The notes beneath the pieces are model-generated. The model was not told the origin of the DNA. It saw nothing but the letters and a program-made list of their open reading frames with translations, and ran no database searches. From Candidatus Parcubacteria bacterium (lineage in GTDB: Bacteria; Patescibacteriota; Patescibacteriia; Patescibacteriales; UBA12465): 64,000 bases of DNA. The stretch spans positions 12,102-76,101 of the forward strand of contig JAEZRQ010000002.1 of NCBI GenBank assembly GCA_023444045.1, read 5' to 3'. The translations under genes and the position numbers were made by a program. Below, piece by piece: positions 1,847 through 64,000 of the stretch. Positions within the stretch are counted from its first letter, which is position 1; each line of letters begins with the position of its first letter.

Positions 1847-1855
1847 TTTTAAAAA

Positions 1856-4315: not shown

Positions 4316-4350
4316 AAATAAAGCGCCCCCTTAAGGGGGCGCTTTATTTT
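4316..4350. terminator. Bidirectional rho-independent terminator between convergent genes
   Basis: aaagcgccccc-ttaa-gggggcgcttt forms a perfect GC-rich 11-bp stem flanked by an A-run and a T-run. Confidence 0.8.
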
Positions 4351-5089: not shown

Positions 5090-5637
5090 ATTTTATGATA
5101 AACGATTTTTTGAATCTCTTTAACCATTTTCCAGTTAATTGCCTCTAAATTATCAAAGTGGTAGTTAGGGTTAAAATATAATATGTCAGCCACTGCCCTC
5201 TCAAGTGAGGCCTCACTAACTTCATTATTTTTATTAACCCCAAAATCATTATAGAGATAATCCTTTTTTAACTTTCTGAAATAGTAATTATAGGGACCAA
5301 CACTAATTCTTTTACTACCACCGCCAATAAAAGTTAAATAATTAATTTTTTGAAAGATGGCACCATGTTTTGCTAAGACTGTCTCACCACTCAAATAACA
5401 ATAATTATTAAAAATCTTAAAGCCTAAAAGCACTGGATCAAGCTCCTCAATTTTTTTTACAGAATAAAGCCCCCGATGAAGACGATAAATTAAACCTTGA
5501 TCAACATAACGTTTAAGAGTTATTAGTAAACTAGCGCGATTTTCAAGCTGCCAAATTTTAGCTAAGTCTGAAACCCGAAAAACAAAGCCTCCCAGCCTTA
5601 GAATATTCAAAAATCTATTTTGTTTAATATTAGTCAT
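5086..5637 (-). CDS. abiEi: AbiEi-family type IV toxin-antitoxin antitoxin / transcriptional regulator
   Basis: 183 aa. An N-terminal winged-helix-like segment (FRVSDLAKIWQLENRASLLITLKRYVDQGLIYRLHRGLYSV) is typical of AbiEi. It is paired with AbiEii. Confidence 0.7.
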   Translation of the reverse strand: MTNIKQNRFLNILRLGGFVFRVSDLAKIWQLENRASLLITLKRYVDQGLIYRLHRGLYSVKKIEELDPVLLGFKIFNNYCYLSGETVLAKHGAIFQKINYLTFIGGGSKRISVGPYNYYFRKLKKDYLYNDFGVNKNNEVSEASLERAVADILYFNPNYHFDNLEAINWKMVKEIQKIVYHKI

Positions 5638-26229: not shown

Positions 26230-26320
26230 TCCTAAGATATCTAGTAAATAGATATGATTTAATTCCACTGAGGCCGCTCCCCCTCCCGGGGGTAGTAGTG
26301 TCGACAACTACTTACTGATA

Positions 26321-45339: not shown

Positions 45340-45376
45340 AAAGAGACTAATCATAACGATTAGTCTTCTTTTTTTA
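45340..45376. terminator. Bidirectional terminator
   Basis: agactaatc-ataac-gattagtct is a 9-bp perfect stem flanked by A/T runs. Confidence 0.75.
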
Positions 45377-46753: not shown

Positions 46754-47359
46754 TTATTTTTCCCAATAAGCACCGTCAACTAACCATTCATTATTACTCT
46801 TTATCAAATCTAAAGTCATTTTTTGTTGATAAGCATCGCCCGGAGCATCGGCCCGAGTTTCTCTTCTTTCGGTGGTTACCTCAATTTTAGCACTATTTTC
46901 GCTGGAACTAATTACTTTAGTGGTTAGCGTTCTAGTAGTAATACCATAATATTCACCGCTGTATTTCTGAGATTTTAAATCAGCAACATAATCATCAGCC
47001 CAATCACGCATTGTTTCGGTCATAAAGATCTTTAAATCGGTAATATTGCTGTAATCTGATTGATTAGAAAATGATCCTAATCTTTCAGCAAAAGAAGATG
47101 ATAACTTAGCCGCATCATTTACCCCAACTAAATATGGATCTTCTTTAGATACATCATAAAGCTGGTAATTACGAGGGGCGTCACCCGGAGTAGTAGTTGG
47201 CGCTCCGCTATCTGGTAAAACTTCTTCAAGGGTTGAAGTAGCAATAGGACCATCAACACTTTGAGGCGCTTTCTTAAGAACCATCACCACAATAATAATA
47301 AGAATCAAAATTGCAATGACAATAATTAATAAGCCTACCTTTTTTCTATCTTCCATCAT
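46754..47359 (-). CDS. Membrane-anchored hypothetical protein, last gene of the T4SS-like cluster
   Basis: 201 aa with an N-terminal TM (VGLLIIVIAILILIIIVVMVL). Lies 11 nt downstream of the VirB4-like gene. Confidence 0.55.
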   Translation of the reverse strand: MMEDRKKVGLLIIVIAILILIIIVVMVLKKAPQSVDGPIATSTLEEVLPDSGAPTTTPGDAPRNYQLYDVSKEDPYLVGVNDAAKLSSSFAERLGSFSNQSDYSNITDLKIFMTETMRDWADDYVADLKSQKYSGEYYGITTRTLTTKVISSSENSAKIEVTTERRETRADAPGDAYQQKMTLDLIKSNNEWLVDGAYWEK

Positions 47360-47370
47360 ATATTTATTAA

Positions 47371-49275
47371 TTAATTATCTTTATTTTTTTGGGCTTCTTC
47401 AAACTGTCTTTTAGCCTCAGCAATTTCTAGTAACTGACGAGGGTCTGAAGTAATTAGCTGATCTTCCGAATAAGAGGCGACAATTTTAATAGCTACATGT
47501 TTATTGCCAGCAAAGAATATCCCTTCGCCAAGACCGCACTCTAAAAGCAAATATTTTTCACCTTCAGTTAATAAGAAAGTTTTTTGAACCAAATCAATAG
47601 CAGCCGGAGACTGTTTAAGTAATATCTGTAAAGAAGAGTTGTTAACAATAGCCTGTCCATAAGGAGAGGTTAAAAAGTCGTTCACATCCTGAGTAATAGT
47701 AGTAACACCCAAGTAATATTTGCGGCAACGTTTTACTAAAGCAAAAATAAATTTAGCAGAATCCTCATGTTGCATCATCCACCACGCCTCATCAATTACT
47801 AAAATTCTCTTTTTAGTTTCACTGCGAACCACATTCCAAATATAATTAACAATTGTATAAATTGCTACCGGACGAAGTTCATCTTCTAAGTCTCTTACCG
47901 AAAAAGCCACCATTTGATTATTCATCTCCACGTTAGTAGGATTATTTAGTAGACCCGCAAAAGTACCTTCGGTATATTTTTTTAAACGCAAAGCTAAATC
48001 GGCTCCACCTTCCATCCCTTCTAAAACCTGCTCAAAATCACTCATGATTGGCGGTTCAATATTAGATAGGTCAGAATCCGGAGTAATATCTTTTTTAGCA
48101 TAAGTTTCAAGTAGTGCTCTATCAATAATTGAATCTTCATCATAATTTAACTTCCCAAGCATGAGTCTCATTAAGCCTTTTAAGGTAATAACCGCACTTC
48201 TGATGATATCTTTAGGCTTAGCTTCTCCGCCAATTGAACGCGGTAAGTCAAAAGGATTAATTTTGTTTTCTGAAGCTAAAGAAATATTAATGTAGGTGCC
48301 ACCAACTGCTTCCGCTAAGTGTTTATATTCATATTCCGGGTCAATCACAATCACATCACTACCAAGCATCAGCGAACGAAGAACCTCTAGTTTAATGGCA
48401 TAACTTTTACCAGCACCGGAAGTCGCAAAAACTACTGAGTTAGCATTCTGCAAAGAAAAACGATCAAACAAAATTAAACTATTATTATGGCGATTAATAC
48501 CATATAAAATACCTTTATCACTAGTTAGCTCACTGGAAATAAAGGGGAAAGATGAGGCAATGGGTGAAGAATTCATGTTAAAGGTAATATAGAGTTCATC
48601 ATTGCCAACTGGTAGGGTGGAATTAAAGCCTTGTTCTGACTGAAAATAAACCCGGCGAGAATAAACTAAACGGGAACCTAAAATATCTTCAACTTGGTCG
48701 CTCATCCTATCAAGTTCCTCTAAATTTTCAGAATACAGGGTGATATAAAGAGAAAATTGAAAGAATTTTTCGGTGCCCTGCGTTAAAGCGTCTCTTAAAT
48801 ATTCAATATCATGTAAAGCGGTTTCGCGAAGTGGATCACGAGCCGCTCCTTTTTCCGCATCCGAGATTATCTGAGCGCCAATAGAACCAACTTTATTTTG
48901 TAGTTGTTTTAAAATAATAGAACTTTTGACTGGATAAAAGAACATGGAGACATCAAAAGTTAAGTTTAAATTAATGATCGGAGCAAACCAACCGACACTA
49001 ATATAACGGGGATAACCAACTACAAAAATAGTACGAACAAATTTATTACCTAAAACCAAGTGTTTAGCTTCAGCCTTTAAACTGGCTGGGGAAATTAAAT
49101 CACGAACAGACAGAACACCTCTTCTAAAGGCCTTTTCTTCTTCAATAATGATTTTATCTTTTTCACTATCAAAACTTAAACCAATCGCCGGTTCTTTAGG
49201 TTTGGGGACTAACTCACTAATGTTAGAATTTAGCCCAATCTTTTTTTGATTGTCTTCTTTTTTAAAATCTATCAT
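47371..49275 (-). CDS. virB4: VirB4/TrsE-family type IV secretion ATPase
   Basis: 634 aa. Walker A ATSGAGKSY, Walker B LVIDEAWWMM, and an upstream LGNKFVRTIFVVGYPRYISVGW segment typical of Gram-positive-type VirB4 homologues. Confidence 0.8.
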   Translation of the reverse strand: MIDFKKEDNQKKIGLNSNISELVPKPKEPAIGLSFDSEKDKIIIEEEKAFRRGVLSVRDLISPASLKAEAKHLVLGNKFVRTIFVVGYPRYISVGWFAPIINLNLTFDVSMFFYPVKSSIILKQLQNKVGSIGAQIISDAEKGAARDPLRETALHDIEYLRDALTQGTEKFFQFSLYITLYSENLEELDRMSDQVEDILGSRLVYSRRVYFQSEQGFNSTLPVGNDELYITFNMNSSPIASSFPFISSELTSDKGILYGINRHNNSLILFDRFSLQNANSVVFATSGAGKSYAIKLEVLRSLMLGSDVIVIDPEYEYKHLAEAVGGTYINISLASENKINPFDLPRSIGGEAKPKDIIRSAVITLKGLMRLMLGKLNYDEDSIIDRALLETYAKKDITPDSDLSNIEPPIMSDFEQVLEGMEGGADLALRLKKYTEGTFAGLLNNPTNVEMNNQMVAFSVRDLEDELRPVAIYTIVNYIWNVVRSETKKRILVIDEAWWMMQHEDSAKFIFALVKRCRKYYLGVTTITQDVNDFLTSPYGQAIVNNSSLQILLKQSPAAIDLVQKTFLLTEGEKYLLLECGLGEGIFFAGNKHVAIKIVASYSEDQLITSDPRQLLEIAEAKRQFEEAQKNKDN

Positions 49276-49952
49276 AGGTCTACTCTTAGTTTGTTTAGAT
49301 CAACCAACTTTTGATTTTTAGCAGTTTCAGGATTATATGTCCTATAATACAACTCAATTAAATCTTGAGTTTCTAAGCGACTGACAGCCACCCCCATAGA
49401 TTCCAAGCCTCCGGCAACACTATCAATTCGGCGCTCTAACATTTCCTGATATCTTCTAAAAATCTTCTCCTTTAAAATAATCATGTTAGCAGGACGAATA
49501 GCATCCTTAAAAGAACTAAAGAATCCTTTATGTCTATCAGTAGCTGGATCATAAGGGACAACAACGTAAAAACGTTTATTCATGATTTTGCCTAAGGAAG
49601 TTAACTCTTTAACATATTCAGTATATTCTCTAGTCTGCGCTTTTAATAATTTATTAGTCTGCTCCTTTTCCTTGCCACTTAAATATTCCAGGTAACCATT
49701 AATATCTAATTCCCTAGATTGAATTACAATTTGTAAAGTAAAGCTTAAGTTGTTTAAAAAACGAACATAAGAATCAATAACCGCGTTCTGCTCATCTTCG
49801 CTTTTTAGGGCAAAGTTAATACTAGAAACCAGAAGCACGGCTCTTAGAGTACCATCTTTCATAATTACCACATCATCTTTAATCTCAGCAATGTCTAAAT
49901 ACTCTTGAGTTGAAGCGCTAACATTATTTTGATTTAGTTTCTTTTCAGGCAT
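49272..49952 (-). CDS. T4SS-associated protein, possibly a separately encoded VirB4 N-terminal-like domain
   Basis: 226 aa with a 4-nt overlap with the virB4-like gene. TQEYLDIAEIKDDVVIMKDGTLRAVLLVSSINFALKSEDEQNAVIDSYVRFLN resembles the N-terminal region of conjugative VirB4/TraE-type proteins. This is judged from memory of the pattern only. Confidence 0.4.
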   Translation of the reverse strand: MPEKKLNQNNVSASTQEYLDIAEIKDDVVIMKDGTLRAVLLVSSINFALKSEDEQNAVIDSYVRFLNNLSFTLQIVIQSRELDINGYLEYLSGKEKEQTNKLLKAQTREYTEYVKELTSLGKIMNKRFYVVVPYDPATDRHKGFFSSFKDAIRPANMIILKEKIFRRYQEMLERRIDSVAGGLESMGVAVSRLETQDLIELYYRTYNPETAKNQKLVDLNKLRVDL

Positions 49953-49955
49953 AAG

Positions 49956-50408
49956 CTAGTTAATTATTTCAAAATCACTTTCATCATTATAAGTACCACT
50001 ATATTCTCCTTTAGTATCAACAATTAAAGATAATTCCGCTAGTTTTGATTTTTCGTAGTATTCTTTAGTTGATCTAGTAGAATCAAACTTTATAGTGGGA
50101 ATCTTTTCCTCATTAATCTCTGGAGCTAAACGATTGTTCCAAACTCTAATAACTGGGCGACGCCAAGTCTGAATAATATTTAACATAAAGAAATGAAAAG
50201 GGCGGCTATTAATTTTCACGAAGCCAAATAGAACTGCTAAAATAAAAATTATAACCGAAAGAACAATAAATAAAGAAAAATCAAACAGTTTGTAAAAAAT
50301 AGCGATAACCACCGCCGCCACTAAAAAAATGATAAATTGTCTGGCAGTGATTGGCCCAATAATTTTATCTTCAACATCAATAAATTGTGGAACCGTAAAC
50401 TGTTGCAT
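49956..50408 (-). CDS. PrgI-family (VirB3-like) T4SS membrane protein
   Basis: 150 aa. TVPQFIDVEDKIIGPITARQFIIF followed by two TM helices is the PrgI-family signature. Lies immediately upstream of the ATPase genes. Confidence 0.65.
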   Translation of the reverse strand: MQQFTVPQFIDVEDKIIGPITARQFIIFLVAAVVIAIFYKLFDFSLFIVLSVIIFILAVLFGFVKINSRPFHFFMLNIIQTWRRPVIRVWNNRLAPEINEEKIPTIKFDSTRSTKEYYEKSKLAELSLIVDTKGEYSGTYNDESDFEIIN

Positions 50409-50411
50409 ATA

Positions 50412-52013
50412 CTAAAACATTAAGCGGTTATTTAAAGCAATAATAGCCTCTATCTCCTCCCAAAACAGAAAATTACTAGCCTTAGCTTTTTGATAATTAT
50501 CAGCACACTGTTTTAAAGCGATTTCCTTATTAAGGGCCTCTTGTCCCATCTTTACATAAAGAGAATTTACTAAGCTATCGCGCCAAGCAAGGACGCCGTT
50601 AATCATCAGATCATAACCATCTTTCTCTAGTAGCTTAATTTTGGCTTCAACTTTGGCAGTTGCTTCTAGAGGAGACGCCCCTAAACGACGAAAATTAGTG
50701 ACATCAAGATAACGCAACTCATCAAGCGGCCCCATTGTTCTGGGTGGTTGAATATCTGAGACTAATGGCTGATTTTTTGGCGGTTGCGGCTTTTCTGCAA
50801 CTATTTGCTTTTTAGTATTATTCTGAGTTTCTAAGACAACTTCATTCCTTTTAGCTATTATTGACTGGGGCTTCACTGTTTCCTCTAAAGCTTGGCTACT
50901 TGCTACAACTTCTTTTTTAGACTCTTCTAGCGGTTTTAATATTTTAGCGACGACACTAGGCTTTTTCTCCGGCGGACGATTGATTTTAAATTCTATTTTC
51001 TTGGGTTCTGCTGGGACTTCTTTTTTTGTGATAATTGTTGGGGGTGTTATTTTTAAAACCTCTTTTATATCATCAGCAACTTTTTTAATTACTTGATTAT
51101 TCTGAGCAATCACTGTAGGTGGGGTCATTTCAGAAACCTTTTCTACGGGGCCAGTCGAATCGCCAACGCTAATTAAATCTTTCTTGTCTGGCGCTTCTAA
51201 TAATTTTTTATCTGCTAACTTTGGAGCTGGCAAAAAAGCATCATCGTTAAGTGGTAAATTTAATTTAACCTCCGCTTCTTTTAGCTGCTTGTTTTTAATA
51301 GCTTCCTGCAGATTATAAGGCGCATCTTTTAGGGGCTCATTCTTCTCATAAGCCTGTCTTACTTTTTCTAGCGCCTCTTTATTTATTTCTCTCTTTGGCT
51401 GAACTGGATTAATTTCTTTTGATTGGTGGTTATTTTTTAATACAAATCCCTCACCTAATTTAAATATTTTATCAATTACTTGATGACTTAAACCTAGTCC
51501 ACCAGAGATAATATCCTTACTAAGGGCTAAACGAACATCCACCCGGCTTCTTACTCCTTTTAAATAGGTTAATAAAATATTTCTTAATCTAATATTAAGC
51601 TCTGAACCAGTAAAAGTGACACCAGAGTTTTTAATTATTTTATCAGCTTCTAAATAATAATCATTTTCTGACTTAATCTCAGTTGCCAGATTTGAAACCG
51701 GCGTCATTTTAGGAAGCACTGTAGAGTAGGATGGGTTATAACCTAAATAATTAGCGACTGTAAAAAATAGTTTTTCTTTAAGATCGGCAGTTAACTTTTT
51801 AGCTTCCTCCGCGTTTAAAGAAAAATCAGACACAAAATAAGTTGGTAAATCCGTTAAGGGGACACTCTTAATCATCACTTTCATTACCGTAGAGGCTAAG
51901 TCTATTTTGTATTTTTTTTCCAACTCAGAAATGACGGCCATCGCCGCCTCAGAAGAAACACTGTTTCGTAAATTTTCAGGGAGGTTATTAAATTTTTGTA
52001 AATAATCAAACAT
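50412..52013 (-). CDS. Hypothetical protein, N-terminal domain paralogous to the upstream gene
   Basis: 533 aa. N-terminal 83 aa are 35 percent identical (ungapped, hand alignment) to 52022..52984. Central Pro/Lys/Glu-rich linker. No family recognised. Confidence 0.6.
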   Translation of the reverse strand: MFDYLQKFNNLPENLRNSVSSEAAMAVISELEKKYKIDLASTVMKVMIKSVPLTDLPTYFVSDFSLNAEEAKKLTADLKEKLFFTVANYLGYNPSYSTVLPKMTPVSNLATEIKSENDYYLEADKIIKNSGVTFTGSELNIRLRNILLTYLKGVRSRVDVRLALSKDIISGGLGLSHQVIDKIFKLGEGFVLKNNHQSKEINPVQPKREINKEALEKVRQAYEKNEPLKDAPYNLQEAIKNKQLKEAEVKLNLPLNDDAFLPAPKLADKKLLEAPDKKDLISVGDSTGPVEKVSEMTPPTVIAQNNQVIKKVADDIKEVLKITPPTIITKKEVPAEPKKIEFKINRPPEKKPSVVAKILKPLEESKKEVVASSQALEETVKPQSIIAKRNEVVLETQNNTKKQIVAEKPQPPKNQPLVSDIQPPRTMGPLDELRYLDVTNFRRLGASPLEATAKVEAKIKLLEKDGYDLMINGVLAWRDSLVNSLYVKMGQEALNKEIALKQCADNYQKAKASNFLFWEEIEAIIALNNRLMF

Positions 52014-52021
52014 GGTAATTA

Positions 52022-52984
52022 CTAGCGGTTAAGTCTATTAATTTCTTGAGAAATTGCTTTATACTCTAAACTGCTTGGCGGATATTTTGTCAGGCTTTTT
52101 TGTAGATCAAGGATTGTTTTTTGCTTAGTTGATATAATTGACTCTTTTTCTTCGATTACTTTTTCTTTAGTAACACTAAGTGAATCCGGATTTTTTTTAT
52201 TTACCGGGAATATCTCCCACTCATCCATCAATATTCCATCCATACTTTCTGGAAAGAAAACTAAATTACGATATAACTTTAACAATTTTCTAATAAGATC
52301 TTTTTCTTCTGGTTTCAATTGTCTAATATTTAGTGATTGGGTTAGATACTCCGCCAGTGTCACTTCATTGAATAAATCGCTGCCATACTGTTTAATAAAA
52401 TCTTTAAGCCAGTTGGCGATTGATGGCGAGGCCGGATGCCCATCTAAAATAATTTGGTGAGCCGTTATCTTTTCTTGATTAACATACAGCAAAGATTCAA
52501 CCTTATCCTCTAGATTTTCATCCTCATTAAACGTTAGAAAGATGGCAACATTTAAGTCCCTTAGATACTCATCGTCAGCCAGCAAATTGGGCACTATTTT
52601 ACTTTCAAAAATATCTAATAATAATTCTTTTCTCTCTGAAAGTGATTTGTCTGATAATTTTTGAGGTACTATTTCTAGCTCATCTTCATCCCCATTTTCA
52701 ATCAGATCTAAGACAGGAGTAAATATTTTTTCATCTAAAATATTAGCGACTTCCTCACCTTTAGCTAAATCTAGTTTAAATTTTAATTGTAAGTACTCTG
52801 GCAAGTCAGCTAAAGTCAGTTCATCAATCGCTACTAAAATAACAGCAAAAGATAAAGAAATATTATAAATCTCCTCTAACTTTTTAATCTCCAGACAAGC
52901 ATCAAAGCCACCGATAAACTCTTGAGCGACTTCTGGTAAATTATGAAATTTTTCTAAACATTCTGCTAAATAACTTTCTTTCAT
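52022..52984 (-). CDS. Hypothetical protein, N-terminal domain paralogous to the downstream gene
   Basis: 320 aa. The shared pattern is L.KF.NLPE...LE..Y.I.L...V...L.DLP.Y...F.L....L.EK.F..V. Confidence 0.6.
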   Translation of the reverse strand: MKESYLAECLEKFHNLPEVAQEFIGGFDACLEIKKLEEIYNISLSFAVILVAIDELTLADLPEYLQLKFKLDLAKGEEVANILDEKIFTPVLDLIENGDEDELEIVPQKLSDKSLSERKELLLDIFESKIVPNLLADDEYLRDLNVAIFLTFNEDENLEDKVESLLYVNQEKITAHQIILDGHPASPSIANWLKDFIKQYGSDLFNEVTLAEYLTQSLNIRQLKPEEKDLIRKLLKLYRNLVFFPESMDGILMDEWEIFPVNKKNPDSLSVTKEKVIEEKESIISTKQKTILDLQKSLTKYPPSSLEYKAISQEINRLNR

Positions 52985-53007
52985 AAAACTATTTTTTATT
53001 TTTCTGT

Positions 53008-56000
53008 CTAATCTTGAGCTTCTTCGCTAGCTGCCATCACGCTCAGTGGTTTTGGATTTTTACCAATAGCCTTAGTTACCTTCTTATCTAGATTGGTAAA
53101 CATGCGGCGGAAGAAGTTAACATCTTCAACGGACATTTTAGTTTGGATATTCTTAATTTGCGGCTGACCACCCTTGCCTTGAGGAGCGCCTGTTTCTAAT
53201 ACCTTGGTTAACTTTGCCAATGATTCATTGATAGCATCTAATTTGTCCTCTGCCATTGAGGAAGTCTTTCCCCAATCATTAGCGATTTCTTCCCCAACCT
53301 CCTTATTTTCGCCACCCCAATCATTAGCAATTTCTTCGCCAACAGCCTCTTTACTGCTGTCGCTACTCTTAACCGCTTTGTTTTCAATAACACCAGATTG
53401 AGAATCCCTAACCCCTTTTTCTGTTTCTATTACTCTTTGAGCATTAGGAACAGACCACTGACTAATTTTTTTCACAACTGCTTCTTCAATTTTTTTCGGA
53501 TCAAATTTTAATGATTCCATTCCAGCAATCATTTTACCAATTTCTGTGTCATATGATTGTTTGCCGCCAGTTCCAGGAATAGCACCGATAAGCCGAGCTT
53601 CTTGCAGAGCGTCACTGGCATCATGAACCAATTCCTCATTCTTGGCGCCAGCTCCATGCATATTTTCATGTTGAATGGAGTTGTAAGAATTTTGCCTTTT
53701 CTCAGTATCAGTTTCTCCTTTATAACTAATATCAGTATTTTGTAATTTAATTTTAGATAAATCCTGTTTTTCTAATCTACCCTTAGCAGCTTGCAACTGC
53801 GATATCTTATTGGCATTTGGATTTGAAGAGAGTTCTTTGTTGATCACTCCCTGTTCTTGTTTTATCTGATTATCTATCTCTGTCTTCTTTTTATTATAAG
53901 CAACTTTTTCAGCTATCGTTCCTTGTGGCATTGAATCTAGATCACTTAAACCAGCTTGTAAATCTTTAATTTTCTGTTGACTAGCGGCAATCACTGGGTT
54001 ATTAGCACTAGCTTCATCAACTGATTTTTGTAGTTTACTTATTTCATCATCAATTAAACTAGCCATGACAGTTGAAATTTTGCTTAACTGTTCTTTGTTA
54101 TCAATAGTAGCCGCTGGAGCCATCTCTAATGGAGTCATGTTAACCCCCATCTCTCTAGCCTTGTTATTTATTTGTTCAAAACTAGCCCCTAAAACATCTT
54201 TTCTATCTAACCTTTCTCCAGCAGATTTTAAGGAATTTTTTGCGAAAGTATCATATTTAAGCTCACCTTCACCTTTATTTAATGACATCTTATTTTCATC
54301 AAAATCGCGATAATTAACTAAGACTTTGCCTGTGTATGAACTAGGATCGTAGTTTCTACCATTTAAAGCTGTTTTTACATCAGAGAGGTTAAGAGAGTCA
54401 TTACCGCCTTTTTCATAAGCAGAGATGAGTTTAGCCACTTCTTCAGTTTCATCATCAGTAAGTCTTTTTGCTCCATTTGTGCCATTAATTTGATTAATAA
54501 GTACTTGTCTAGCCTTATAACCATCAGAGGCAACATCGCCAGTATTCATCATGTCTAATTCCAATTTCTGCTTCTCATCAATACCCTTTTTATTATAAAT
54601 TCCGCCTTTACCTAAACCACTAAAATAATCTTTATCTTGAGCAATAACGCCCATCTTCTTTTCCGCTCGGTCATACTTTTCAGTCATATTCTTTAAAGCT
54701 CTGGCGGTAATATCTAAAGGCTTATTCTTTTCTCGATTAACAGTTTTTTCATTACTTGCATACTGCTTACTTCTTGCCACGGCGTCCTTTTCATCATCTG
54801 TCCACATGTTTTCAGTATAGTTTGGGTTATTTTGCATTTTAGTCCTTAAGCTATCCACGATTGTCTTGTCGGTGTCCTTAATCCCAGAATTTTTATAATT
54901 TTCATTAAAGTCCTTAGCTTCTTTATATTTTCTGGACTTTGGCATTTTAGAATTAAAATTATCAACAACATCTTTCAGATTTTTAGCTGACTCACCACCA
55001 ACGCCCATCTTCTTAAGAAAGGCTTCTCTTTGAGTGGCTTTTTTCTTTTTTCTCTCATTTTGTAAATTATCGCGCCAGTTAAGGGCAAATTGGGCTGTTT
55101 TACTTGTAGATTTGCCAGTGATTGGGTCTTTCTTGCCGATACTAGCAACACCAGCCACACCGCCCAAAGCTAAATTTCTAGCGCCGCGACCGGTAGCGTT
55201 AGCCAAAGCTTTCCCTCTGGCTAGAGCAAAACCACCAGCGGCCGCACCCGCGCCTAATAAGAACCCCTTGCCTTTAGAAAATCCTTTACCTAAAGCTGAG
55301 GCAGCTTCACCGCCAACATCTTGAGCAATTTTCATCCCTCCTAAAAGCATACCAATAGCAATCACAAATCTGGCCATTCCGGCAACTGTTCCCGCTTCAC
55401 TGCCGACACTAACACCGTTACTAGCGGTTAGCTCATCATCGCCTGATGAAGATCCTTTAATTGGGTTACCGTTATCTGTCTGCAAAGCGGCAAAAGAAAG
55501 CCACAAGAAGAAAGCAATCACTGGGCCAACGATTAAATTACTGCTCCACTTTGTCCACCACTGTGAAGCATAAGAACCGCCCTTACCAGGGACTGCTTGC
55601 AAGAAAAAAGCTAATGGGGAAAGGACTACTAAAATCCAAATCATCACCACCCGCATCACTAGCATACCGAGCATAGCTGCCACAACCACTAGAGCAATCA
55701 GCACATAAATAAGACCAAAAATATAAGCACCAACAACAGAACTTAAACTAACATCCCTGCCAGTAGTATTAAGCTTCACAACGCTAGAAATACCCAACAT
55801 GTCCAACATGTTACCAGCACCAATAGCACTAAAAGCTTTAACAAAAGTAAGCATGACTACATTAGCCACATCAATCATTAACCCACAAATCAATTTAGAA
55901 AAATTAATCAAAACCGCGGCCATAATTAGTTTTGGCAGCATTTTTTGAGCACCATACTCTTCTTGTCCTAAAATAGTGGCAAAAGCAATTATCAAAAGGA

Positions 56001-56295
56001 TAATGACAAAAAACATGTTACATAAGTCACGAACCACTACCCAACCGCGCGAAACAGCTGCCGCATTAATAAAATCACTATAAGAAGCTACATCCATTAA
56101 GAGATTTACCACTAAAATCAAAATATTAGCCACCCCCCTAACCAAAAGATCCATAATGTTACCAACCACATTAGCCACAGCTGATTCTATACCAGCTGAT
56201 ACCGGACTAACAAACAAAAAAAGCACCGCTAAAAAAGATAAAGATACGACTATCTTTTTTTTGGTGCCTATTTTTTTAAAATTTATTTTCTTCAT
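53008..56295 (-). CDS. Large polytopic membrane protein, VirB6/TrbL-like N-terminal half with long soluble C-terminal half
   Basis: 1095 aa. Signal/TM N-terminus, about 8 TM helices in the first 380 aa, then a Gly/Ala-rich segment and a charged ~700-aa tail. The call is by architecture and position in the T4SS-like cluster. Confidence 0.45.
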   Translation of the reverse strand: MKKINFKKIGTKKKIVVSLSFLAVLFLFVSPVSAGIESAVANVVGNIMDLLVRGVANILILVVNLLMDVASYSDFINAAAVSRGWVVVRDLCNMFFVIILLIIAFATILGQEEYGAQKMLPKLIMAAVLINFSKLICGLMIDVANVVMLTFVKAFSAIGAGNMLDMLGISSVVKLNTTGRDVSLSSVVGAYIFGLIYVLIALVVVAAMLGMLVMRVVMIWILVVLSPLAFFLQAVPGKGGSYASQWWTKWSSNLIVGPVIAFFLWLSFAALQTDNGNPIKGSSSGDDELTASNGVSVGSEAGTVAGMARFVIAIGMLLGGMKIAQDVGGEAASALGKGFSKGKGFLLGAGAAAGGFALARGKALANATGRGARNLALGGVAGVASIGKKDPITGKSTSKTAQFALNWRDNLQNERKKKKATQREAFLKKMGVGGESAKNLKDVVDNFNSKMPKSRKYKEAKDFNENYKNSGIKDTDKTIVDSLRTKMQNNPNYTENMWTDDEKDAVARSKQYASNEKTVNREKNKPLDITARALKNMTEKYDRAEKKMGVIAQDKDYFSGLGKGGIYNKKGIDEKQKLELDMMNTGDVASDGYKARQVLINQINGTNGAKRLTDDETEEVAKLISAYEKGGNDSLNLSDVKTALNGRNYDPSSYTGKVLVNYRDFDENKMSLNKGEGELKYDTFAKNSLKSAGERLDRKDVLGASFEQINNKAREMGVNMTPLEMAPAATIDNKEQLSKISTVMASLIDDEISKLQKSVDEASANNPVIAASQQKIKDLQAGLSDLDSMPQGTIAEKVAYNKKKTEIDNQIKQEQGVINKELSSNPNANKISQLQAAKGRLEKQDLSKIKLQNTDISYKGETDTEKRQNSYNSIQHENMHGAGAKNEELVHDASDALQEARLIGAIPGTGGKQSYDTEIGKMIAGMESLKFDPKKIEEAVVKKISQWSVPNAQRVIETEKGVRDSQSGVIENKAVKSSDSSKEAVGEEIANDWGGENKEVGEEIANDWGKTSSMAEDKLDAINESLAKLTKVLETGAPQGKGGQPQIKNIQTKMSVEDVNFFRRMFTNLDKKVTKAIGKNPKPLSVMAASEEAQD
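53270..53343. repeat. 29-nt repeat with 45-nt period inside the VirB6-like gene
   Basis: ccccaatcattagcGatttcttcCccaac / ccccaatcattagcAatttcttcGccaac. It encodes VGEEIANDWG twice. Confidence 0.85.
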
Positions 56296-56336
56296 TTGAG
56301 AAAAATTAAACTCTGCTGACTAAATATTTAAAATCC

Positions 56337-56897
56337 CTAACTAGAGAATATGTCTAACGCCACACTAATTGGATCAACAATTATAGAAATAATGACAAGT
56401 AGCCCTAAGACTAAAAACAAGCATCCGATATTCAAACATCCACAGCCAGATCGCTCAAGAACTTTAATTAAAGAAACCGCTTGCTTACCTTTTTCATCAC
56501 CTAGTTTTTTTAAACCTGACGGAATCCATTCTTCGCCTAATTCTCTAAATACTTTGGGGCCAAAAACTTTATTCAAAAAAACATGTATGTCTATCCAAAG
56601 TAAGGTTAAACCCCAACTAGGAATTAAATTCTGCCAGGCACCTTGCAGTAGCTTATCTGTCAACTTTCTAATCGTACTATCACGATGAATTATTTCGGCC
56701 GCCCTCTTTTCGGTGCTAATGTTTAGCCCCCGCCTTTCCCTAACTTGCTGCCTAAAATCTGTAGAAGGATTTGGTTCTGATTGCCTTGGCTGACGAAGAG
56801 AGGCTCGGAATTCTCCAGCCTTTTCCAGCTCATCAAAATCCTTATTTTTATTTAATAACTGTTCGTCAATATCCATAAAAACGCTAAAATAATTCAA
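56337..56897 (-). CDS. Small membrane protein, first gene of the T4SS-like cluster (pilin-like role possible)
   Basis: 186 aa with two C-terminal hydrophobic segments, the last one Cys-rich (GCGCLNIGCLFLVLGLLVIISIIV). The track start is TTG 56897; an alternative ATG lies at 56876. Confidence 0.5.
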   Translation of the reverse strand: MNYFSVFMDIDEQLLNKNKDFDELEKAGEFRASLRQPRQSEPNPSTDFRQQVRERRGLNISTEKRAAEIIHRDSTIRKLTDKLLQGAWQNLIPSWGLTLLWIDIHVFLNKVFGPKVFRELGEEWIPSGLKKLGDEKGKQAVSLIKVLERSGCGCLNIGCLFLVLGLLVIISIIVDPISVALDIFSS

Positions 56898-57108
56898 TCT
56901 AATTATAGCATAAAGAATAAATTATTTTAACAGCTTTTACTCTATAATTTTACTATAAAAAAAAGATTCTGGCAAAAGAAAAAAAACATTTATTTTTTAT
57001 TTCGAAAAATAAAAAACTAAAAGGCGAAAAAACATATCCATATTGACAAAAAATAACATTAGTGACAGAATTTAGTTAATAAAAAGTAACTTAAAAACAG
57101 AATACACC

Positions 57109-58182: not shown

Positions 58183-58214
58183 AAAAGACGTGTTATAAAG
58201 ACACGTCTTTTTTA
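58183..58214. terminator. Bidirectional terminator between convergent genes
   Basis: aagacgtgt-tataaag-acacgtctt is a 9-bp perfect stem flanked by A/T runs. Confidence 0.75.
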
Positions 58215-58231: not shown

Positions 58232-61200
58232 CTACTCAAATAAATTTTTATAAGTACCCCAGTTATCAAAAACGCTAACATTAAAATCATTATAATCACC
58301 CTCAAGATAAAAATGGCTGACTGTATGAGGATCAGAGGTTTCTGGCTTATGATCAACACCGGTAATAACTTGAGAGCCATCGCCCCAATTAATAATAATC
58401 TGCCTTAGTGGCTGCTGCTCTTCATCAACTTTAGTATTAAAACTTAACTGATAAACTCCGCTCTTCTCTATTTTAATAGTTTTATTTTTTGGAGTAAAAG
58501 ATACTCCCTGCCCACTTATTTTAACATTACTTATAATTGGATAAATCTTGCACAAACCGCTATCATCAGAACGCTTGTCACAGATAGCGAATGAGCTAAT
58601 TTTATTAAATAGGGTTACATTATTATCTCTTTGATAAGTCTTGGTATTTGAGCTATACACATAATCCACATATTTTTCTGCGAAGATATTATTAAGATAG
58701 TTAGTTGCCGACATAATGCTAGGAATAAAATCCCCCCATAACTTCACACAAGTACCATTGCCACCAGCTGAACAGCTAAGCTTATTTAAATCTTCATCAT
58801 TTTCCCTATAGAAACAGAAAACATTAGGGTCTAAACTACATTGGCCGATATTAGCACAGCCCGGTCCAGTACAACTATATGGACGACCAGCCAACACGCT
58901 CTCTGACATCCTCTTTGAATATTGGTTTCTTAAAGGAATAACTTCACTATTTAAGAAGTCAAAATTATTTGGCAATATTGAGGCCCCAAATGGGACATCC
59001 TCTCTGTTTCTAATATATCCTTGTGCACCACCAAGATATGATGGAGTATTGGTGGCCATATTGTTGCGACTAGTTCTGCCCGTCCAAGCAGCATTTTTAC
59101 CAGAATTATCAACCACTTGAATGAACCTATTGCAGGTGACACGATATACATCCTCAGGATTTTGGTTATAGACGTGTTTTAAATTACCCTCCGCTGGATT
59201 ATTTATATTCATGACCATAATTGAAGAAAAAGATGTTGCTAAGGTATTACTAGATTCATTGACGTCAGCTAATACACTTTTACCAGTTTCAGTAATAAAG
59301 TTATCATTATCATAATCAATCGCCGAATAATAGACTGAATTATGCTTAGATAAACCATTATAATTCCACCATCCTTCTTTAAAAGTAATTCTGCAGTTAG
59401 CATTGATGTGATACTGGCTTAAGTCCACCACTTTTGTTTCAGTCTCTATTTTAAGCCCGGCTTTTTTAGGAGCACAATAAACCATAAACTGTGTTCTCTC
59501 TGGACCATTAAATGCTAGAAAATCTCCTTCGCCAGTAGTTCTTCTGAAGGTTATAGCCACATAATCTGGACTACCGCATAAAGAATTACTAGAACTATCC
59601 CCCAAACAGCGACAGTCGCCACCAGTTACAGTCATAGAGTCAATAACGTTTGAGCAATTTACAGTATTGTTGAAGATTCCAGTGCCAGATGAACCACCTA
59701 CTTTAGCAATCACTTCGCCGGGGTTTGTAGTTTCCATACCAGCATAGGAGTGCAATACCCCAACTCTCTTCTCTACTAAAGTAAAATCCCCATTAGCTTC
59801 AGAACAGTAATAGAGCGGGAATTTTCCAGAGTAACCTAGAGATGATTGAGTGTTTTTGGTAATTGGGGAAATCTTATCAATTGGATACCACATCAAGCAG
59901 ACATTAGGATTTATTGGATCTGATTGCAAACAATAACCATAAAGACCATCTTTAACAACATTATTATTAGCTGAAGTACAAGTTAAGCTATCATCGCTAG
60001 GATATAAGCGGCAACTCTTAGCAATATAAGAATTATTGCTTGTTTTTAATACCGGTTCAATATTAATATCATCAAAATAGACATAAGAAGTGTTGGTATT
60101 TACCGCATTTGAAGATAAATAGATTCTGATTTTCTTAATTTCAGTAATTGGACTGGTAACTTTAAACTGATTTATTTTTCTCTCCCAACCATTTGGAGAC
60201 GCATCGGCAAAGGTGGCAATAACGTTATTATTTTCGTCAGTAATAATCAGCTTAGCTCTTAGCCCCGAACCCTTGGTGTTAATTAAATAGTTAATGTAAT
60301 AGTCTTGATTAGAGAAAATGGAGATACTGTCATCTTTAGATATTGGCGAAATTTGATAATACCCCAAAACCTTTAAGTATCCCTTGCCATTAGCTGGATA
60401 ATCCGTGGTAGCATCTTTTGGATTAAGCACTAAGCTATCATTAATATTTTTATCAAATACACAGGCTTTATCTTTTTCTGAAATCAAGGCACCGCTAACA
60501 TCAATATTTCTGACACATGAGAGATTAACTGACGAATCCTCAAAATCAAAATGGGCCTCAGTATTCTGTCCTACCTCTTTCATGGCACCAATATAGTAAT
60601 TATTTAACAGTGAGTATCCGGTGGCATTTTTATTGCTTGTGAGAGTGGAGTTTCTAACAGTTTGATCCATTGGTAAAATCTCTACACACTCATTTTTGTC
60701 ATTTAGCTGACTGCATTCTCCCATTGAATAACAAACCTTTTCTTTAGTTACTGGATCTTCAATATAAGTCTGGCAAGACAACCATTTAGAACAGACTCTG
60801 TCTGGAGAGGCTTTAATTACCTGGTTAGCATTACAATAATTAGTATTTTCTCCGCTACAAGAAGCTGGACCGCTACCTTCATTTGTAAGATCGGCTGCAA
60901 AAACATTGGTCTTGAGCCCACTAGCGCCTGATTGAGATCTAACATTAAATAAGACACAACCATTGTCAGTATTAACAACCCCATTACAAGAAGTGCTATC
61001 AATATTAGAATTTATTTGATAATTAATAATAACTTCTTTTAGAATGGCGTCCATGTCTAAAGTTTTAAACAGTCCTTCGGCATTAACTGTGTCCTCATCT
61101 CTAAAAATTCTCACCGTTTTATTATTACCAGAGTAAAAGATAACTGATTCGTTACTACCATAAGAGCTATAGTGTAGACCCCTATCATTAGTAGAAAATC

Positions 61201-64000
61201 CCTCCCCTTGGTTATACAATTTATTATCAGCTTTTAAAACATAGAAAGTATTAGCCGCACCAACGCTAACTCTTCCCTGAAAAGCTATGTGTTGCAAGGA
61301 ACCATCTTCAGTTTTTTTAGTTTCAAGTTTTAAAGTGTAAAGCTTATTAGGCTGCACCTTAACATCTTGATAATAATAATTACCATCCTTTATCCAGCTA
61401 TCATTAATATTTATTGAACCATCCTTATTAATATCTAAAGCGCCAGGATTATAAATTAAGTTTTCTGCATGCTTACTTAGTGGGTCAATATATTCGGTAC
61501 AACCAGAGTATTCTTGATTACAAATACCAACTGCTCCCTCTGGAGTAGGAACTCTAGAGGCATCACCACCAAAACCAATGGTTTTTAGATAATTAACATT
61601 ACATGGGTATTCGTTGGTGTCATCGATACATTTGCGGCCATTACAATCAGCATCAGACGCACAAATAGCGGCGTCTTTCTCGCTACCATCAATACCGCCA
61701 CTGGCATTAGCATCGCAGCGTTTAACTGGCGATTTATACCAGAAGTTATTTTTAAAGACACAGGTATTGAGTCCTGGATTCTTAAAGTAAAGTGAGCTGT
61801 TATTATCTGTCACCCAAGTATCACAACCAACCTCATTATAAGAACAAAGAGGGGAAGAGTTTTCATTGGCATAGGTATTAGGAGTATTTTTCTTATAAAC
61901 ATCTGCCCAAGTAGTTATCGAACCGGATGTTTGTGGAACGCCAAACCGAGAGCAGCCGGCATCAGCCTTATTACATTGCTTGCTTGGGTCAAAAACAGCG
62001 TAGACTGCCTCATGCCCCCTAACCTCCACACAGCCAAAATCTCCGGGGTTACAGGCAGCACTGACATCATCACTATTTAAATTCATTTTTAAGCCATAAT
62101 AGCCAGAATAATTGTGGGTTTGAATCATTTGTTCGCAACCCACAGCTGAATCAGAACAAAGGCTGCTAAACTGATGAAGATTATGAGTGATTTTTGAAGC
62201 ATCTTGATATTGAGCACAACCCAAATTATAGTTTGGGCCTTGATATTTATCAAAAATATCATAGAAACAAACATCTGGCACATAACTACTGCCTTTAATT
62301 AAGTAATAACGATCAGTGATTTCTGTAATAATTACATTATCAATTAGAACACTATTATTGGTTTTTATTTTTAAAACATCTAGGTTAATTTCATGATTTA
62401 ATTCTCTAAGATTTATTTCGTATACATGCCAAGCGCTATCATTTTTTATATAAACATTACCTAGTGGATTGTCTTCAGTAACATTGAAAGTGGCGGCCTC
62501 TCCCTTAGAATTTTCAAACGAGAAGTTAGCTGTCACTTCAGGACCACTGGCCTTAGCTAGGAACTTAATAATATAAGCCGATCCTTCTTTAGCAAAGCTA
62601 GAAACATCAACCCCAGCTCCATCATAAAAACCAAGAGACTGGCCATTTTTATAAATAGAATCTGAACTTAAAGTTAGTTCTGCTCCATTTTTCAAGGAAT
62701 AAAAATCATCTAGACTATTATCAAAAGTATAGCTAGCTACTAATTTTAGGTTGTTTCCATTATTACCATTATATTCTCTGCAACCAACATTTTCCGCAGC
62801 ACATTTAGTGCCTTCTTCTGGGATAGCACTATAAATACAAGCGTTTTGAGTATTATTCCAGACACCATTATTTTTACAAACATAACAAGCTGATTGAGCG
62901 GAGTCCCATTTTTTATCACTGCCAACGCAGGTATTAGAGTTTAAGCTCTTATCAATATTTTTTTCATTTAAACGATAAGAATAACAATTTTCGGAACAAG
63001 AAACAGTGTTTGATAATAAGTTGTAGGTAACTTTTCCGTTCTTACTATAAAATTCCCGACAATCAGGGTTATATCTAGGGTCACTGGCCGGTAGATTATA
63101 TATCTCCGCAGTACAATTTTCACTTAAACCTGGGTTAACTAAAAATGGGTTATTATTTGCATCTACTTTTAAGGACATCACCTTCAACTGAGAGTTATCC
63201 CAAGAATAGAAATCAGCACAAGTTGAAGCATCTGGCTTAATACATTGCCTCAACTTAGAGTAATATTCAATTTGCTCACCACCGCTTGAAACAGCATCTA
63301 AATTAGTGAAGCTCGCACAACCAACGCTTTCGGCACTACATTCGTTAGCATTTCCTGGAATTAAATTGTCAGCTGAGGTGCCGTAAAAATAAGTTTCTTT
63401 GGCTAAATAAGTATCATAACCGACACACTGAGCATCACAGTAATCGCTAGTATTGGCTTTTGCAGCAACGGTAAAATTATCTTTTACTGAAGAGAAAGAA
63501 TCGCAACCAACATCAGCACGATTACACTTTCTGGCATAATTATTACAAATTTCTGGGGCTCCTTGTTTTAAGGAATAATTACCAGCACCATCGGCTGCTT
63601 CATAACAAACACTCTCTAAATAAGCCGGTAGTATTTTTTGATAAACTGGGAAGGCGGCATAATTAGAAAAACCAGGATTGAAACTATTGGGGGTTAATTT
63701 TAAATTTCTGACGAAAAACTCTACGTTACCATCATCATTATAACCAGTAATAGCGAAGTTAAGATTATTTGTCTGATCTAAAGTAACAGAAATTGGCTGC
63801 CAATAAGCAACCCCAGAAACCTCAGCCGTTTTACCATCACTACCAAAGGACATTGATACTTTACTAGCACTATTAATTTTAATTTCGGCTGATAGAGTAT
63901 ACGACCAACCGTTTATTGGTTCTAAATTTTTTGGTATAACGCTATTTTTATTATCAGAAAATAAAGAAGCAAAAGCCCAACCCTTAACAAATAAGGCTTT
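58232..64000 (-). CDS. Giant Cys-rich secreted/surface protein with C-terminal PKD-like domain, 5' end beyond the right edge
   Basis: The track lists 1873 aa from an internal Met at 63853. I checked the frame codon by codon from 63854 to 64000 and found no stop (…KALFVKGWAFASLFSDNKNSVIPKNLEPINGWSYTLSAEIKINSASKVSM…), so the gene is longer than 1,920 aa and truncated. It has dozens of Cys and a recurring ..GC..[FYW] motif. The C-terminal INWGDGS...HFY...V.V.DNWG is PKD-like. Confidence 0.85.
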   Translation of the reverse strand, partial: KALFVKGWAFASLFSDNKNSVIPKNLEPINGWSYTLSAEIKINSASKVSMSFGSDGKTAEVSGVAYWQPISVTLDQTNNLNFAITGYNDDGNVEFFVRNLKLTPNSFNPGFSNYAAFPVYQKILPAYLESVCYEAADGAGNYSLKQGAPEICNNYARKCNRADVGCDSFSSVKDNFTVAAKANTSDYCDAQCVGYDTYLAKETYFYGTSADNLIPGNANECSAESVGCASFTNLDAVSSGGEQIEYYSKLRQCIKPDASTCADFYSWDNSQLKVMSLKVDANNNPFLVNPGLSENCTAEIYNLPASDPRYNPDCREFYSKNGKVTYNLLSNTVSCSENCYSYRLNEKNIDKSLNSNTCVGSDKKWDSAQSACYVCKNNGVWNNTQNACIYSAIPEEGTKCAAENVGCREYNGNNGNNLKLVASYTFDNSLDDFYSLKNGAELTLSSDSIYKNGQSLGFYDGAGVDVSSFAKEGSAYIIKFLAKASGPEVTANFSFENSKGEAATFNVTEDNPLGNVYIKNDSAWHVYEINLRELNHEINLDVLKIKTNNSVLIDNVIITEITDRYYLIKGSSYVPDVCFYDIFDKYQGPNYNLGCAQYQDASKITHNLHQFSSLCSDSAVGCEQMIQTHNYSGYYGLKMNLNSDDVSAACNPGDFGCVEVRGHEAVYAVFDPSKQCNKADAGCSRFGVPQTSGSITTWADVYKKNTPNTYANENSSPLCSYNEVGCDTWVTDNNSSLYFKNPGLNTCVFKNNFWYKSPVKRCDANASGGIDGSEKDAAICASDADCNGRKCIDDTNEYPCNVNYLKTIGFGGDASRVPTPEGAVGICNQEYSGCTEYIDPLSKHAENLIYNPGALDINKDGSININDSWIKDGNYYYQDVKVQPNKLYTLKLETKKTEDGSLQHIAFQGRVSVGAANTFYVLKADNKLYNQGEGFSTNDRGLHYSSYGSNESVIFYSGNNKTVRIFRDEDTVNAEGLFKTLDMDAILKEVIINYQINSNIDSTSCNGVVNTDNGCVLFNVRSQSGASGLKTNVFAADLTNEGSGPASCSGENTNYCNANQVIKASPDRVCSKWLSCQTYIEDPVTKEKVCYSMGECSQLNDKNECVEILPMDQTVRNSTLTSNKNATGYSLLNNYYIGAMKEVGQNTEAHFDFEDSSVNLSCVRNIDVSGALISEKDKACVFDKNINDSLVLNPKDATTDYPANGKGYLKVLGYYQISPISKDDSISIFSNQDYYINYLINTKGSGLRAKLIITDENNNVIATFADASPNGWERKINQFKVTSPITEIKKIRIYLSSNAVNTNTSYVYFDDINIEPVLKTSNNSYIAKSCRLYPSDDSLTCTSANNNVVKDGLYGYCLQSDPINPNVCLMWYPIDKISPITKNTQSSLGYSGKFPLYYCSEANGDFTLVEKRVGVLHSYAGMETTNPGEVIAKVGGSSGTGIFNNTVNCSNVIDSMTVTGGDCRCLGDSSSNSLCGSPDYVAITFRRTTGEGDFLAFNGPERTQFMVYCAPKKAGLKIETETKVVDLSQYHINANCRITFKEGWWNYNGLSKHNSVYYSAIDYDNDNFITETGKSVLADVNESSNTLATSFSSIMVMNINNPAEGNLKHVYNQNPEDVYRVTCNRFIQVVDNSGKNAAWTGRTSRNNMATNTPSYLGGAQGYIRNREDVPFGASILPNNFDFLNSEVIPLRNQYSKRMSESVLAGRPYSCTGPGCANIGQCSLDPNVFCFYRENDEDLNKLSCSAGGNGTCVKLWGDFIPSIMSATNYLNNIFAEKYVDYVYSSNTKTYQRDNNVTLFNKISSFAICDKRSDDSGLCKIYPIISNVKISGQGVSFTPKNKTIKIEKSGVYQLSFNTKVDEEQQPLRQIIINWGDGSQVITGVDHKPETSDPHTVSHFYLEGDYNDFNVSVFDNWGTYKNLFE

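Follow-up and report, generated by a model that had tools for sequence, protein, structure and literature searches.

An eight-gene type IV secretion system cluster in the chromosome of a Falkowbacteria-type member of the Patescibacteria

The assigned components of the cluster

The 64-kb stretch of DNA analysed here (from now on, the window) is part of contig JAEZRQ010000002.1 of a Candidatus Parcubacteria bacterium, and contains a cluster of eight genes that is a genuine type IV secretion system (T4SS). In agreement with a preliminary description of this DNA, all eight genes are located on the minus strand with tiny gaps between them (-4 to 41 nt), at the coordinates claimed. Five could be assigned: a VirB4-type ATPase, a TrsD-like protein, a PrgI/VirB3-like protein, a VirB8-like protein and, with moderate support, an extended VirB6-like protein. 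The other three, encoding p186, p320 and p533, have no assignment. The earlier view that half of the genes lacked a recognisable family was thus too pessimistic, given that two of the four supposed unknowns turned out to be TrsD-like and VirB8-like.

The gene at 47371-49275 encodes a 634-aa protein that matches the NCBIfam model NF045971 (CD1110 family) with 355.6 bits, above the cutoff of 325, along model positions 177-734 only, and Pfam P-loop_TraG with 102 bits. Both the Walker A (GAGKS, residue 287) and the Walker B (VIDEAW, residue 493) motifs are intact. Its closest solved structure is the C-terminal domain of Thermoanaerobacter VirB4 (4ag5, E = 9.6e-48), followed by TrwK of R388, and identity to TrsE of pSK41 is ~26%. 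When the family was compared with hhalign, the alignments with pSK41 TrsE (99.8%) and with the fused PrgJ of pCF10 (99.7%) spanned more than 500 columns. The protein is therefore, as had been proposed, a VirB4-type ATPase of the T4SS kind, and not of the FtsK/HerA kind. The adjacent gene (49272-49952), which overlaps the previous one by 4 nt, encodes a 226-aa protein with similarity to the N-terminal parts of VirB4 models in NCBIfam (VirB4_plasma positions 92-281, E = 2.3e-13; TIGR00929 positions 6-173; CD1110 positions 10-104) and to the TrsD/TraD model (E = 3.2e-7). Its precomputed Pfam assignment is PF26593, TraC-like, and its family profile matches pSK41 TrsD (hhalign 85.7%, E = 5.5e-6). 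This open reading frame (ORF) had been correctly delimited and listed without a family; its sequence identifies it as TrsD-like, the predicted stand-alone equivalent of the N-terminal domain of VirB4. Since the 634-aa protein aligns with residues 36-626 of TrsE, that is, nearly the entire protein, but only with residues 222-774 of PrgJ, and the 226-aa protein aligns with TrsD, VirB4 is split as in pSK41. Next to them, the gene at 49956-50408 encodes a small membrane protein of 150 aa for which the earlier PrgI/VirB3-like designation holds, with a match to Pfam PF12666 PrgI of 37 bits (cutoff 27). An orthologue of this protein, with a median identity of 54%, was found in 74 of 80 related loci (L001-L080), these being the 80 top matches of a scan of species-representative genomes that detected VirB4 relatives in more than 586 of them.

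At the end of the cluster, the gene at 46754-47359 encodes p201 (201 aa), previously described as an unknown protein with a transmembrane (TM) anchor. The anchor is present: in an AlphaFold2 model built from a 62-sequence alignment, with a predicted local distance difference test score (pLDDT) of 84.6 overall and above 90 in the globular domain, a TM helix (residues 3-28) is followed by a disordered linker and an NTF2-like domain (80-199) consisting of three helices on a four-stranded sheet. Comparison of this model with the PDB by Foldseek gave the VirB8 domain of PrgL (7aed, E = 1.3e-4), CagV (6iqt), TraH of pIP501 (5aiw), TcpC (3ub1), Rickettsia VirB8 (4o3v), chain 8rtd_Y (TrwG) of the R388 T4SS and TraE of pKM101 (5wip), the VirB8-type matches ranging from E = 1e-4 to 4e-3. 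PrgL was also the top match of the p201 family among 31 transfer proteins in hhalign, weakly at the sequence level (E = 1.1e-3), and a search of the family with the Pfam VirB8 model gave no match. The p201 gene adjoins virB4 in 73 of the 80 related loci. Based on the Foldseek matches, the similarity to PrgL and this position beside virB4, p201 is read as a VirB8-like bitopic T4SS component with a predicted extracytoplasmic domain, so that it no longer counts as an unknown.

The largest gene of the cluster (53008-56295) encodes p1095 (1,095 aa), in which conservation is confined to the N-terminal ~340 residues of the family alignment. The protein has a signal-like N-terminus and, between residues ~15 and 320, six or more hydrophobic segments, while its C-terminal ~750 aa are variable, hydrophilic and of coiled-coil or low-complexity character, with matches there to coiled-coil proteins only. 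Of 32 orthologues, four give a match to Pfam TrbL/VirB6 (best E = 4.6e-5), and the family, represented by residues 1-420, aligns with pSK41 TrsL over 137 columns (hhalign 58.6%, E = 9.5e-5). These data give moderate support to p1095 being an extended VirB6-like polytopic membrane protein.

Conserved components without a known counterpart

The proteins p320 (320 aa, gene at 52022-52984) and p533 (533 aa, 50412-52013) had been noted as two paralogous unknowns. They share similarity across their N-terminal 80 aa in BLASTP (E = 3e-10), and alignment of their family profiles with hhalign extends this to ~200 residues (99.85%, E = 1.3e-30); by sequence, they are true paralogues. In p533, where no TM segment was found, the paralogous region (residues 1-198) is followed by a disordered-looking linker rich in Lys, Pro and Glu and by a conserved C-terminal domain. 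The AlphaFold2 model of p320 (pLDDT 90.8) corresponds to an all-helical, soluble protein, without significant Foldseek matches in the PDB (best E = 1.6) or in BFVD (best E = 0.33), and its profile retrieved only coiled-coil noise from PDB sequences. The structure-based look at the unknowns that had been suggested was thus fruitful for p201, which resolved to a VirB8-like fold, and for p320 it gave a confident model with no fold match. No Pfam or NCBIfam model matched p186, p320 or p533, and neither p320 nor p533 resembled the transfer proteins of pCF10 or pSK41 in hhalign. The p320/p533 family is widespread: a profile search against 1.84 billion representatives of clusters at 50% identity retrieved 2,149 clusters at E <= 1e-3 and 352 at E <= 1e-30, and the genes of two members sampled from them precede PrgI-sized and TrsD-sized genes. 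The idea that these proteins could form an expanded array of effectors or pilin-like subunits was rejected, because no locus has more than two copies.

The first gene of the cluster encodes p186, in an ORF at 56337-56897. Translation most likely starts at Met8, which is conserved and corresponds to the start chosen by the gene callers of its homologues, giving a protein of 179 aa instead of 186 (likely coding sequence 56337..56876). Its N-terminal region is charged and variable; this is followed by a conserved hydrophobic hairpin, AWxNLIxSFGLTLIYINxHVFL...FCKLGEEW, which includes a GEEW motif, and by a TM helix at the C-terminus. All 52 homologues are annotated as hypothetical; none of 26 family members examined against Pfam gave a match, nor was there any match among PDB sequences or hhalign similarity to any Tra protein of pCF10 or pSK41. 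A role as pilin was considered. The C-terminal half contains two hydrophobic segments, but it has a long loop and no signal peptide, and with no Pfam or PDB match and no similarity to TrsB/CagC of pSK41, PrgF or PrgG in hhalign, this option is unsupported. Judging from its sequence, p186 is a conserved, lineage-specific membrane component. Its description as a small Cys-rich membrane protein was right regarding the membrane and overstated regarding cysteine, of which there are only three residues.

Conservation, transcription unit and neighbourhood

The VirB4 proteins of the best 80 relatives are 75-89% identical to the one in the window, and many of the records are titled Candidatus Falkowbacteria or Patescibacteria, the former belonging to the Patescibacteria group according to the NCBI taxonomy. 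A recurring collinear order was observed among these loci, as had been recommended for checking: a gene for a giant protein, p186, p1095, p320, p533, PrgI, TrsD, VirB4, p201, radA and, on the opposite strand, recG. We take Falkowbacteria to be part of the GTDB class ABY1, an equivalence that also fits the ABY1-specific context in the literature discussed below. A complete upstream flank of 10 kb was available for 43 loci. All of these contain the genes for TrsD, PrgI and p533, while those for p1095, p320 and p186 were found in 36, 35 and 22, respectively. Unrelated genes (MetK-like, helix-turn-helix proteins) lie between the p320 and p533 orthologues in several relatives (L001 2931-6896, L006, L022 and the closed genome CP066698.1, L010 1-7296), and in CP066698.1 the genes upstream of p533 are unrelated (helix-turn-helix proteins and others). 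The separation of p320 from p533 in some relatives indicates that the T4SS genes form two separable modules. Many third-party-annotation metagenome-assembled genomes with this locus (VirB4 76-89% identical; L005, L013, L015, L017 and others) are titled "uncultured Gammaproteobacteria bacterium", and other records Planctomycetota or Nanoarchaeota; all of these look like taxonomic mislabels.

The gene content of the window is that of an ordinary chromosome, including threonyl-tRNA synthetase, PilM, ZnuABC, glycosyltransferases, a Cu-ATPase, MgtE, uracil-DNA glycosylase, LexA, RecG, RadA and three tRNAs, and the GC content of the cluster (0.360) is close to that of the remainder (0.347). Among loci selected by VirB4 similarity, median identity is 82.7% for VirB4 versus 66.8% for RadA and 56.9% for RecG, with VirB4 showing the highest value in all 38 comparable genomes. 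Conservation beyond that of RadA and RecG points to a constraint that is unusually strong for the ATPase of a T4SS. The nearest plasmid-borne VirB4 proteins, from Firmicutes or Actinobacteria, are at most 35% identical.

Genes for conjugation were searched for in several ways. Pfam analysis of ~50 ORFs of the window revealed no relaxase, type IV coupling protein (T4CP), integrase or hydrolase domain. When the T4CPs of pSK41 and pCF10 (TrsK, PcfC), hydrolases, the TrsB pilin, an integrase and the relaxases PcfG, Nes and MobV were used as tblastn queries against 1.29 Mb of DNA, comprising the window and 81 related loci (±10 kb), there were no matches; TrsE, included as a positive control, matched in 82 of 82. 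Intergenic DNA contains only short AT-rich inverted repeats, none convincing as oriT-like. Hence, the absence from the window of VirD4, relaxase, oriT-like repeats and integrase, previously claimed, is confirmed, and so is the lack of a recognisable hydrolase or pilin, the latter also in terms of Pfam matches in the cluster and nearby small ORFs and of similarity to TrsB/CagC of pSK41. Likewise, there are no VirB7-, VirB9- or VirB10-like genes in the cluster.

The position of radA (45374-46723, minus strand; TIGR00416, 505 bits) directly after the cluster, also noted before, was verified: it begins 30 nt downstream of the p201 gene, and no terminator-like site was found between them. A terminator-like hairpin with a 10-bp stem and a T-run lies directly after radA (45344..45366, minus strand); it is bidirectional and shared with a convergent 108-aa ORF. 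At the other end, two sigma-70-like promoter matches, each with 10 of 12 consensus positions and consisting of consensus matches only, are located upstream of p186 (56902..56975, minus strand). The best terminator-like hairpins of the region are those after radA and after the giant gene, and the best promoter-like matches those just upstream of p186. As the totals of promoter- and terminator-like sites do not exceed the expectation from shuffled sequences, only the positions at the operon boundaries were used, as suggestive evidence. They suggest a nine-gene transcription unit extending from p186 through radA, of which radA would probably be the last gene, a step beyond mere adjacency. In 40 of the 54 loci with enough flank, radA is on the same strand and within 4 kb, with recG beside it.

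Upstream of the cluster, a frame on the minus strand (58232..64000) remains open to base 64000 and encodes a giant Cys-rich protein, 69 of the 1,873 residues seen being Cys (3.7%). The gene is cut by the window edge, was called at 2,600 aa in the source-like 291-kb contig (L081 1-4753), and has a terminator-like hairpin of its own (58183-58211). The protein gave no match in Pfam or the PDB. Of 36 informative loci, ~22 have a homologue encoded upstream of the module on the same strand, a linkage that is frequent and not constant, in partial agreement with the earlier proposal of a substrate or partner; it is possible that the giant protein is a surface partner or substrate of the T4SS. The same proposal had been made for the FISUMP (Fib_succ_major) lipoprotein encoded on the plus strand between the giant gene and p186 (57109-58179), and in this case it was not sustained: none of the 80 related loci has a counterpart, for which reason we regard the gene as a local, strain-specific insertion and not a conserved partner.

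Several other features of the window were noted. A three-gene operon on the minus strand (22160-26307) encodes a reverse transcriptase (PADLOC RT, E = 3.4e-36; best class of defence-associated reverse transcriptases RT_UG26, E = 2.8e-31), a 565-aa ATPase of the ATP-binding cassette type and a phospholipase D-family nuclease (DrmC-like, E = 1e-14). These genes probably form a defence-associated reverse transcriptase system, and this combination of three proteins matched no named system. At 4349-5637 (minus strand), an AbiEii nucleotidyltransferase toxin (Pfam E = 5.6e-23) and an AbiEi-like antitoxin constitute a type IV toxin-antitoxin or abortive-infection pair. The region 233-2902 (minus strand) contains PilM (Pfam E = 8.8e-43) followed by three small ORFs (216, 194 and 129 aa) without Pfam match, which may be PilN/O-type partners in a type IV pilus. 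Such pili, like the T4SS, are surface machines implicated in host attachment by Patescibacteria. Finally, a 1,361-aa protein with BNR/Asp-box and Sortilin-Vps10-type repeats, encoded at 33167-37252 (minus strand), is probably surface-exposed.

Interpretation and relation to known systems

Systems of this kind have been described in Patescibacteria (PMC10633639, PMC12102498, PMC12857230), in line with the statement in the preliminary description that minimal T4SS-like clusters had been noted in this group. By transposon sequencing, Wang et al. (2023; PMC10633639) showed that a T4SS is essential for the epibiotic growth of a Saccharibacterium, S. epibionticum. This system (SEML1_0006-0019) is closest to Gram-positive conjugative systems and lacks coupling and relaxase proteins. 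Quinonero-Coronel et al. (2025; Microb Genom, PMC12102498) described a monophyletic clade of Patescibacteria VirB4 proteins nested in MPF-FATA, with TrsD as the commonest companion of VirB4, and with PrgI and VirB6 homologues present; relaxases were all but missing, and VirB8 homologues were rare, nearly all of them in ABY1, where T4SS loci are commonly found with comF, recG and radA. In the same study, VirD4-like genes were distant from virB4 in most Patescibacteria genomes. VirB2-like pilins are encoded near virB4 in 1,135 assemblies, and are essential in the Saccharibacteria system. A review published in 2025 (FEMS, PMC12857230) treats the Patescibacteria T4SS as a recognised T4SS subtype.

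Our analysis indicates that the locus is, very probably, a chromosomal, relaxase-less T4SS of the Patescibacteria kind, derived from MPF-FATA systems, with a layout closest to that of pGO1/pSK41 and with a presumptive role in transport. The housekeeping flanks, the conserved order and the lack of conjugation genes bear out the earlier view of a chromosomal, non-conjugative, minimal T4SS of Gram-positive type. The kind of system was already known (Cell 2023; Microb Genom 2025), and the locus is a good, well-conserved example of it in a Falkowbacteria-type genome. From its predicted products, the cluster encodes the cytoplasmic-membrane core of a monoderm T4SS with a split VirB4. Hexamers of VirB4/TrsD may dock via PrgI and the VirB8-like protein, and would then power a translocon based on VirB6 that spans the epibiont's single membrane at the site of contact with the host. 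Such a system could move macromolecules between epibiont and host cell, either proteins out or nucleic acids in. It would not mobilise itself, since neither a relaxase nor a coupling protein or integrase was found alongside it.

Several observations weigh against this reading. All matches of the 226-aa protein to TrsD and to the N-terminal part of VirB4 in NCBIfam fall below the family cutoffs. The Foldseek list of p201 interleaves VirB8 structures with generic NTF2 folds, and its TM-scores are only 0.40-0.49, as normalised to the full-length query including TM helix and disordered linker. The p1095 protein of the window itself yields no Pfam TrbL match, and the VirB6/TrbL-like identity already attributed to it rests on the moderate scores of its relatives, the value to TrsL being just 58.6%; this part of the earlier description stands with moderate support. 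No VirB2-like pilin was found at the locus, although many Patescibacteria T4SSs have one. The absence of a T4CP holds for the 64-kb window and the loci of its relatives, and a distant one could be encoded on the rest of the 291-kb contig. Membership in the published Patescibacteria clade is inferred from the nearest relatives, and the function and direction of transport in Falkowbacteria are entirely a matter of inference.

A more specific version of this explanation, which does not contradict it, is that the T4SS works as a machine for nucleic acid import or competence, analogous to ComB or Ced, passing DNA on to RadA and RecG for use in recombination or salvage. The location of radA, with no terminator-like site separating it from the p201 gene and with recG adjoining, would fit such a function, as would the comF, recG and radA genes of ABY1 loci (PMC12102498) and the lack of relaxase and T4CP, shared with ComB and Ced; in addition, a 2026 preprint proposes acquisition of host nucleic acid (RNA) with T4SS-like tubes in another Patescibacterium. 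However, all compared loci belong to fairly close relatives, so that the adjacency of radA may be inherited order, and radA is not adjacent in 14 of the 54. There is no comF or comEC in the window, and the model for CedB reaches 45 bits against a cutoff of 700. Besides, competence in S. epibionticum needs comEC and type IV pili, and its T4SS is essential regardless of comEC (PMC12857230). No Patescibacteria T4SS is known to import DNA. Overall we consider an import function rather unlikely. Still less probable is the joint proposition that the system is, in the Falkowbacteria/ABY1 lineage, an import machine for nucleic acids in which p320/p533 and p186 would be new subunits, standing in for the coupling protein in substrate handling or for the pilin in contact, the giant protein being an adhesin for host contact.

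It is very improbable that the cluster is part, or a decayed remnant, of an integrative and conjugative element whose relaxase, T4CP and integrase lie beyond the window. The core genes do descend from monoderm conjugation systems, the window covers just 64 kb of a contig of ~291 kb, and VirD4-like genes are often remote from virB4 in Patescibacteria (PMC12102498). Nevertheless, the cluster has housekeeping flanks and an order conserved over dozens of species, its composition is the same as that of its surroundings, conservation of its VirB4 exceeds that of RadA and RecG in each of the 38 genomes compared, and none of the 81 related loci has a mobile-element gene within ±10 kb. Relaxases are also scarce in the group: a count over 3,035 Patescibacteria genomes gave 109, of which only 15 lie near virB4 (PMC12102498). 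This explanation is already largely refuted. Finally, a weak match of the ATPase to Pfam DUF87, the HerA central domain (30 bits), and another to AAA_10 might evoke a non-T4SS translocase of the HerA/FtsK type in a cluster that is no secretion system, a reading with next to no probability, refuted by the family scores (the VirB4 CD1110 model above its curated cutoff, the long alignments with TrsE and PrgJ, and solved relatives headed by VirB4 and TrwK) and by the neighbouring PrgI, TrsD-like, VirB8-like and VirB6-like genes.

Few molecular entry points exist for studying how ultra-small epibionts exploit their hosts; the T4SS of Patescibacteria is among them, and it is essential in the sole genetically tractable species. 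In this context, the locus represents a clean, complete ABY1/Falkowbacteria example of a system whose kind is not new, and it provides a sharper parts list. The list comprises a VirB4 divided as in pSK41, a protein of VirB8 fold found in almost every relative examined, a probable extended VirB6 and three conserved unknowns. The remaining interest lies in these three unassigned components, particularly p320, with more than 2,000 clusters and no fold match in the PDB or BFVD. Together with the probable co-transcription of radA, p186, p320 and p533 offer concrete targets for finding what the machine transports.

Compared with the T4SSs of the Patescibacteria clade, the locus shares its chromosomal location, nearest VirB4 relatives restricted to Patescibacteria, TrsD beside VirB4, PrgI/VirB3 and, probably, a VirB6-like protein, the lack of a relaxase or T4CP nearby and the radA/recG context seen in ABY1; the VirB8 homologue is a further trait in common with the ABY1 members. 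In contrast with the Saccharibacteria system, there is no VirB2-like pilin gene or array in or near the cluster, and no peptidase or lysozyme gene downstream of virB4. Further points of difference are the genes for p186, p320 and p533, and the ~750-aa C-terminal extension of the VirB6-like protein. An "extended VirB6" architecture has been described (PMC12857230), and the polytopic N-terminal domain and large hydrophilic C-proximal domain of p1095 resemble those of Rickettsiales RvhB6 and F-plasmid TraG, whereas its C-terminal domain is variable, of coiled-coil or low-complexity type, and without detectable similarity to them.

With respect to the ComB system of Helicobacter pylori and the archaeal Ced system, the likeness consists of being VirB4-driven, the lack of relaxase and coupling protein and the genomic link to recombination genes. 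ComB, however, is a diderm set of VirB2-4 and VirB6-10, and CedA, CedA1 and CedA2 are absent here, with scores of the CedB and CedD models far from their cutoffs (for CedD, 19.7 versus 600). Among the MPF-FATA systems, pGO1, pSK41 and pIP501 share the local order of VirB3-like (TrsC/PrgI), TrsD and VirB4 (TrsE) genes. Unlike the pSK41-type systems, the cluster has no T4CP (TrsK), relaxase (Nes), CHAP hydrolase (TrsG), topoisomerase or single-stranded DNA-binding protein, no homologue of TrsA, TrsB, TrsF, TrsH or TrsJ of pSK41, and is fixed in the chromosome instead of being carried on a mobile replicon. It has in common with pIP501 a protein of VirB8 fold (TraH and TraM in that plasmid), and with pSK41 both a VirB4 devoid of its N-terminal domain, which TrsD supplies, and a probable protein of the TrbL/VirB6 family (TrsL in pSK41).

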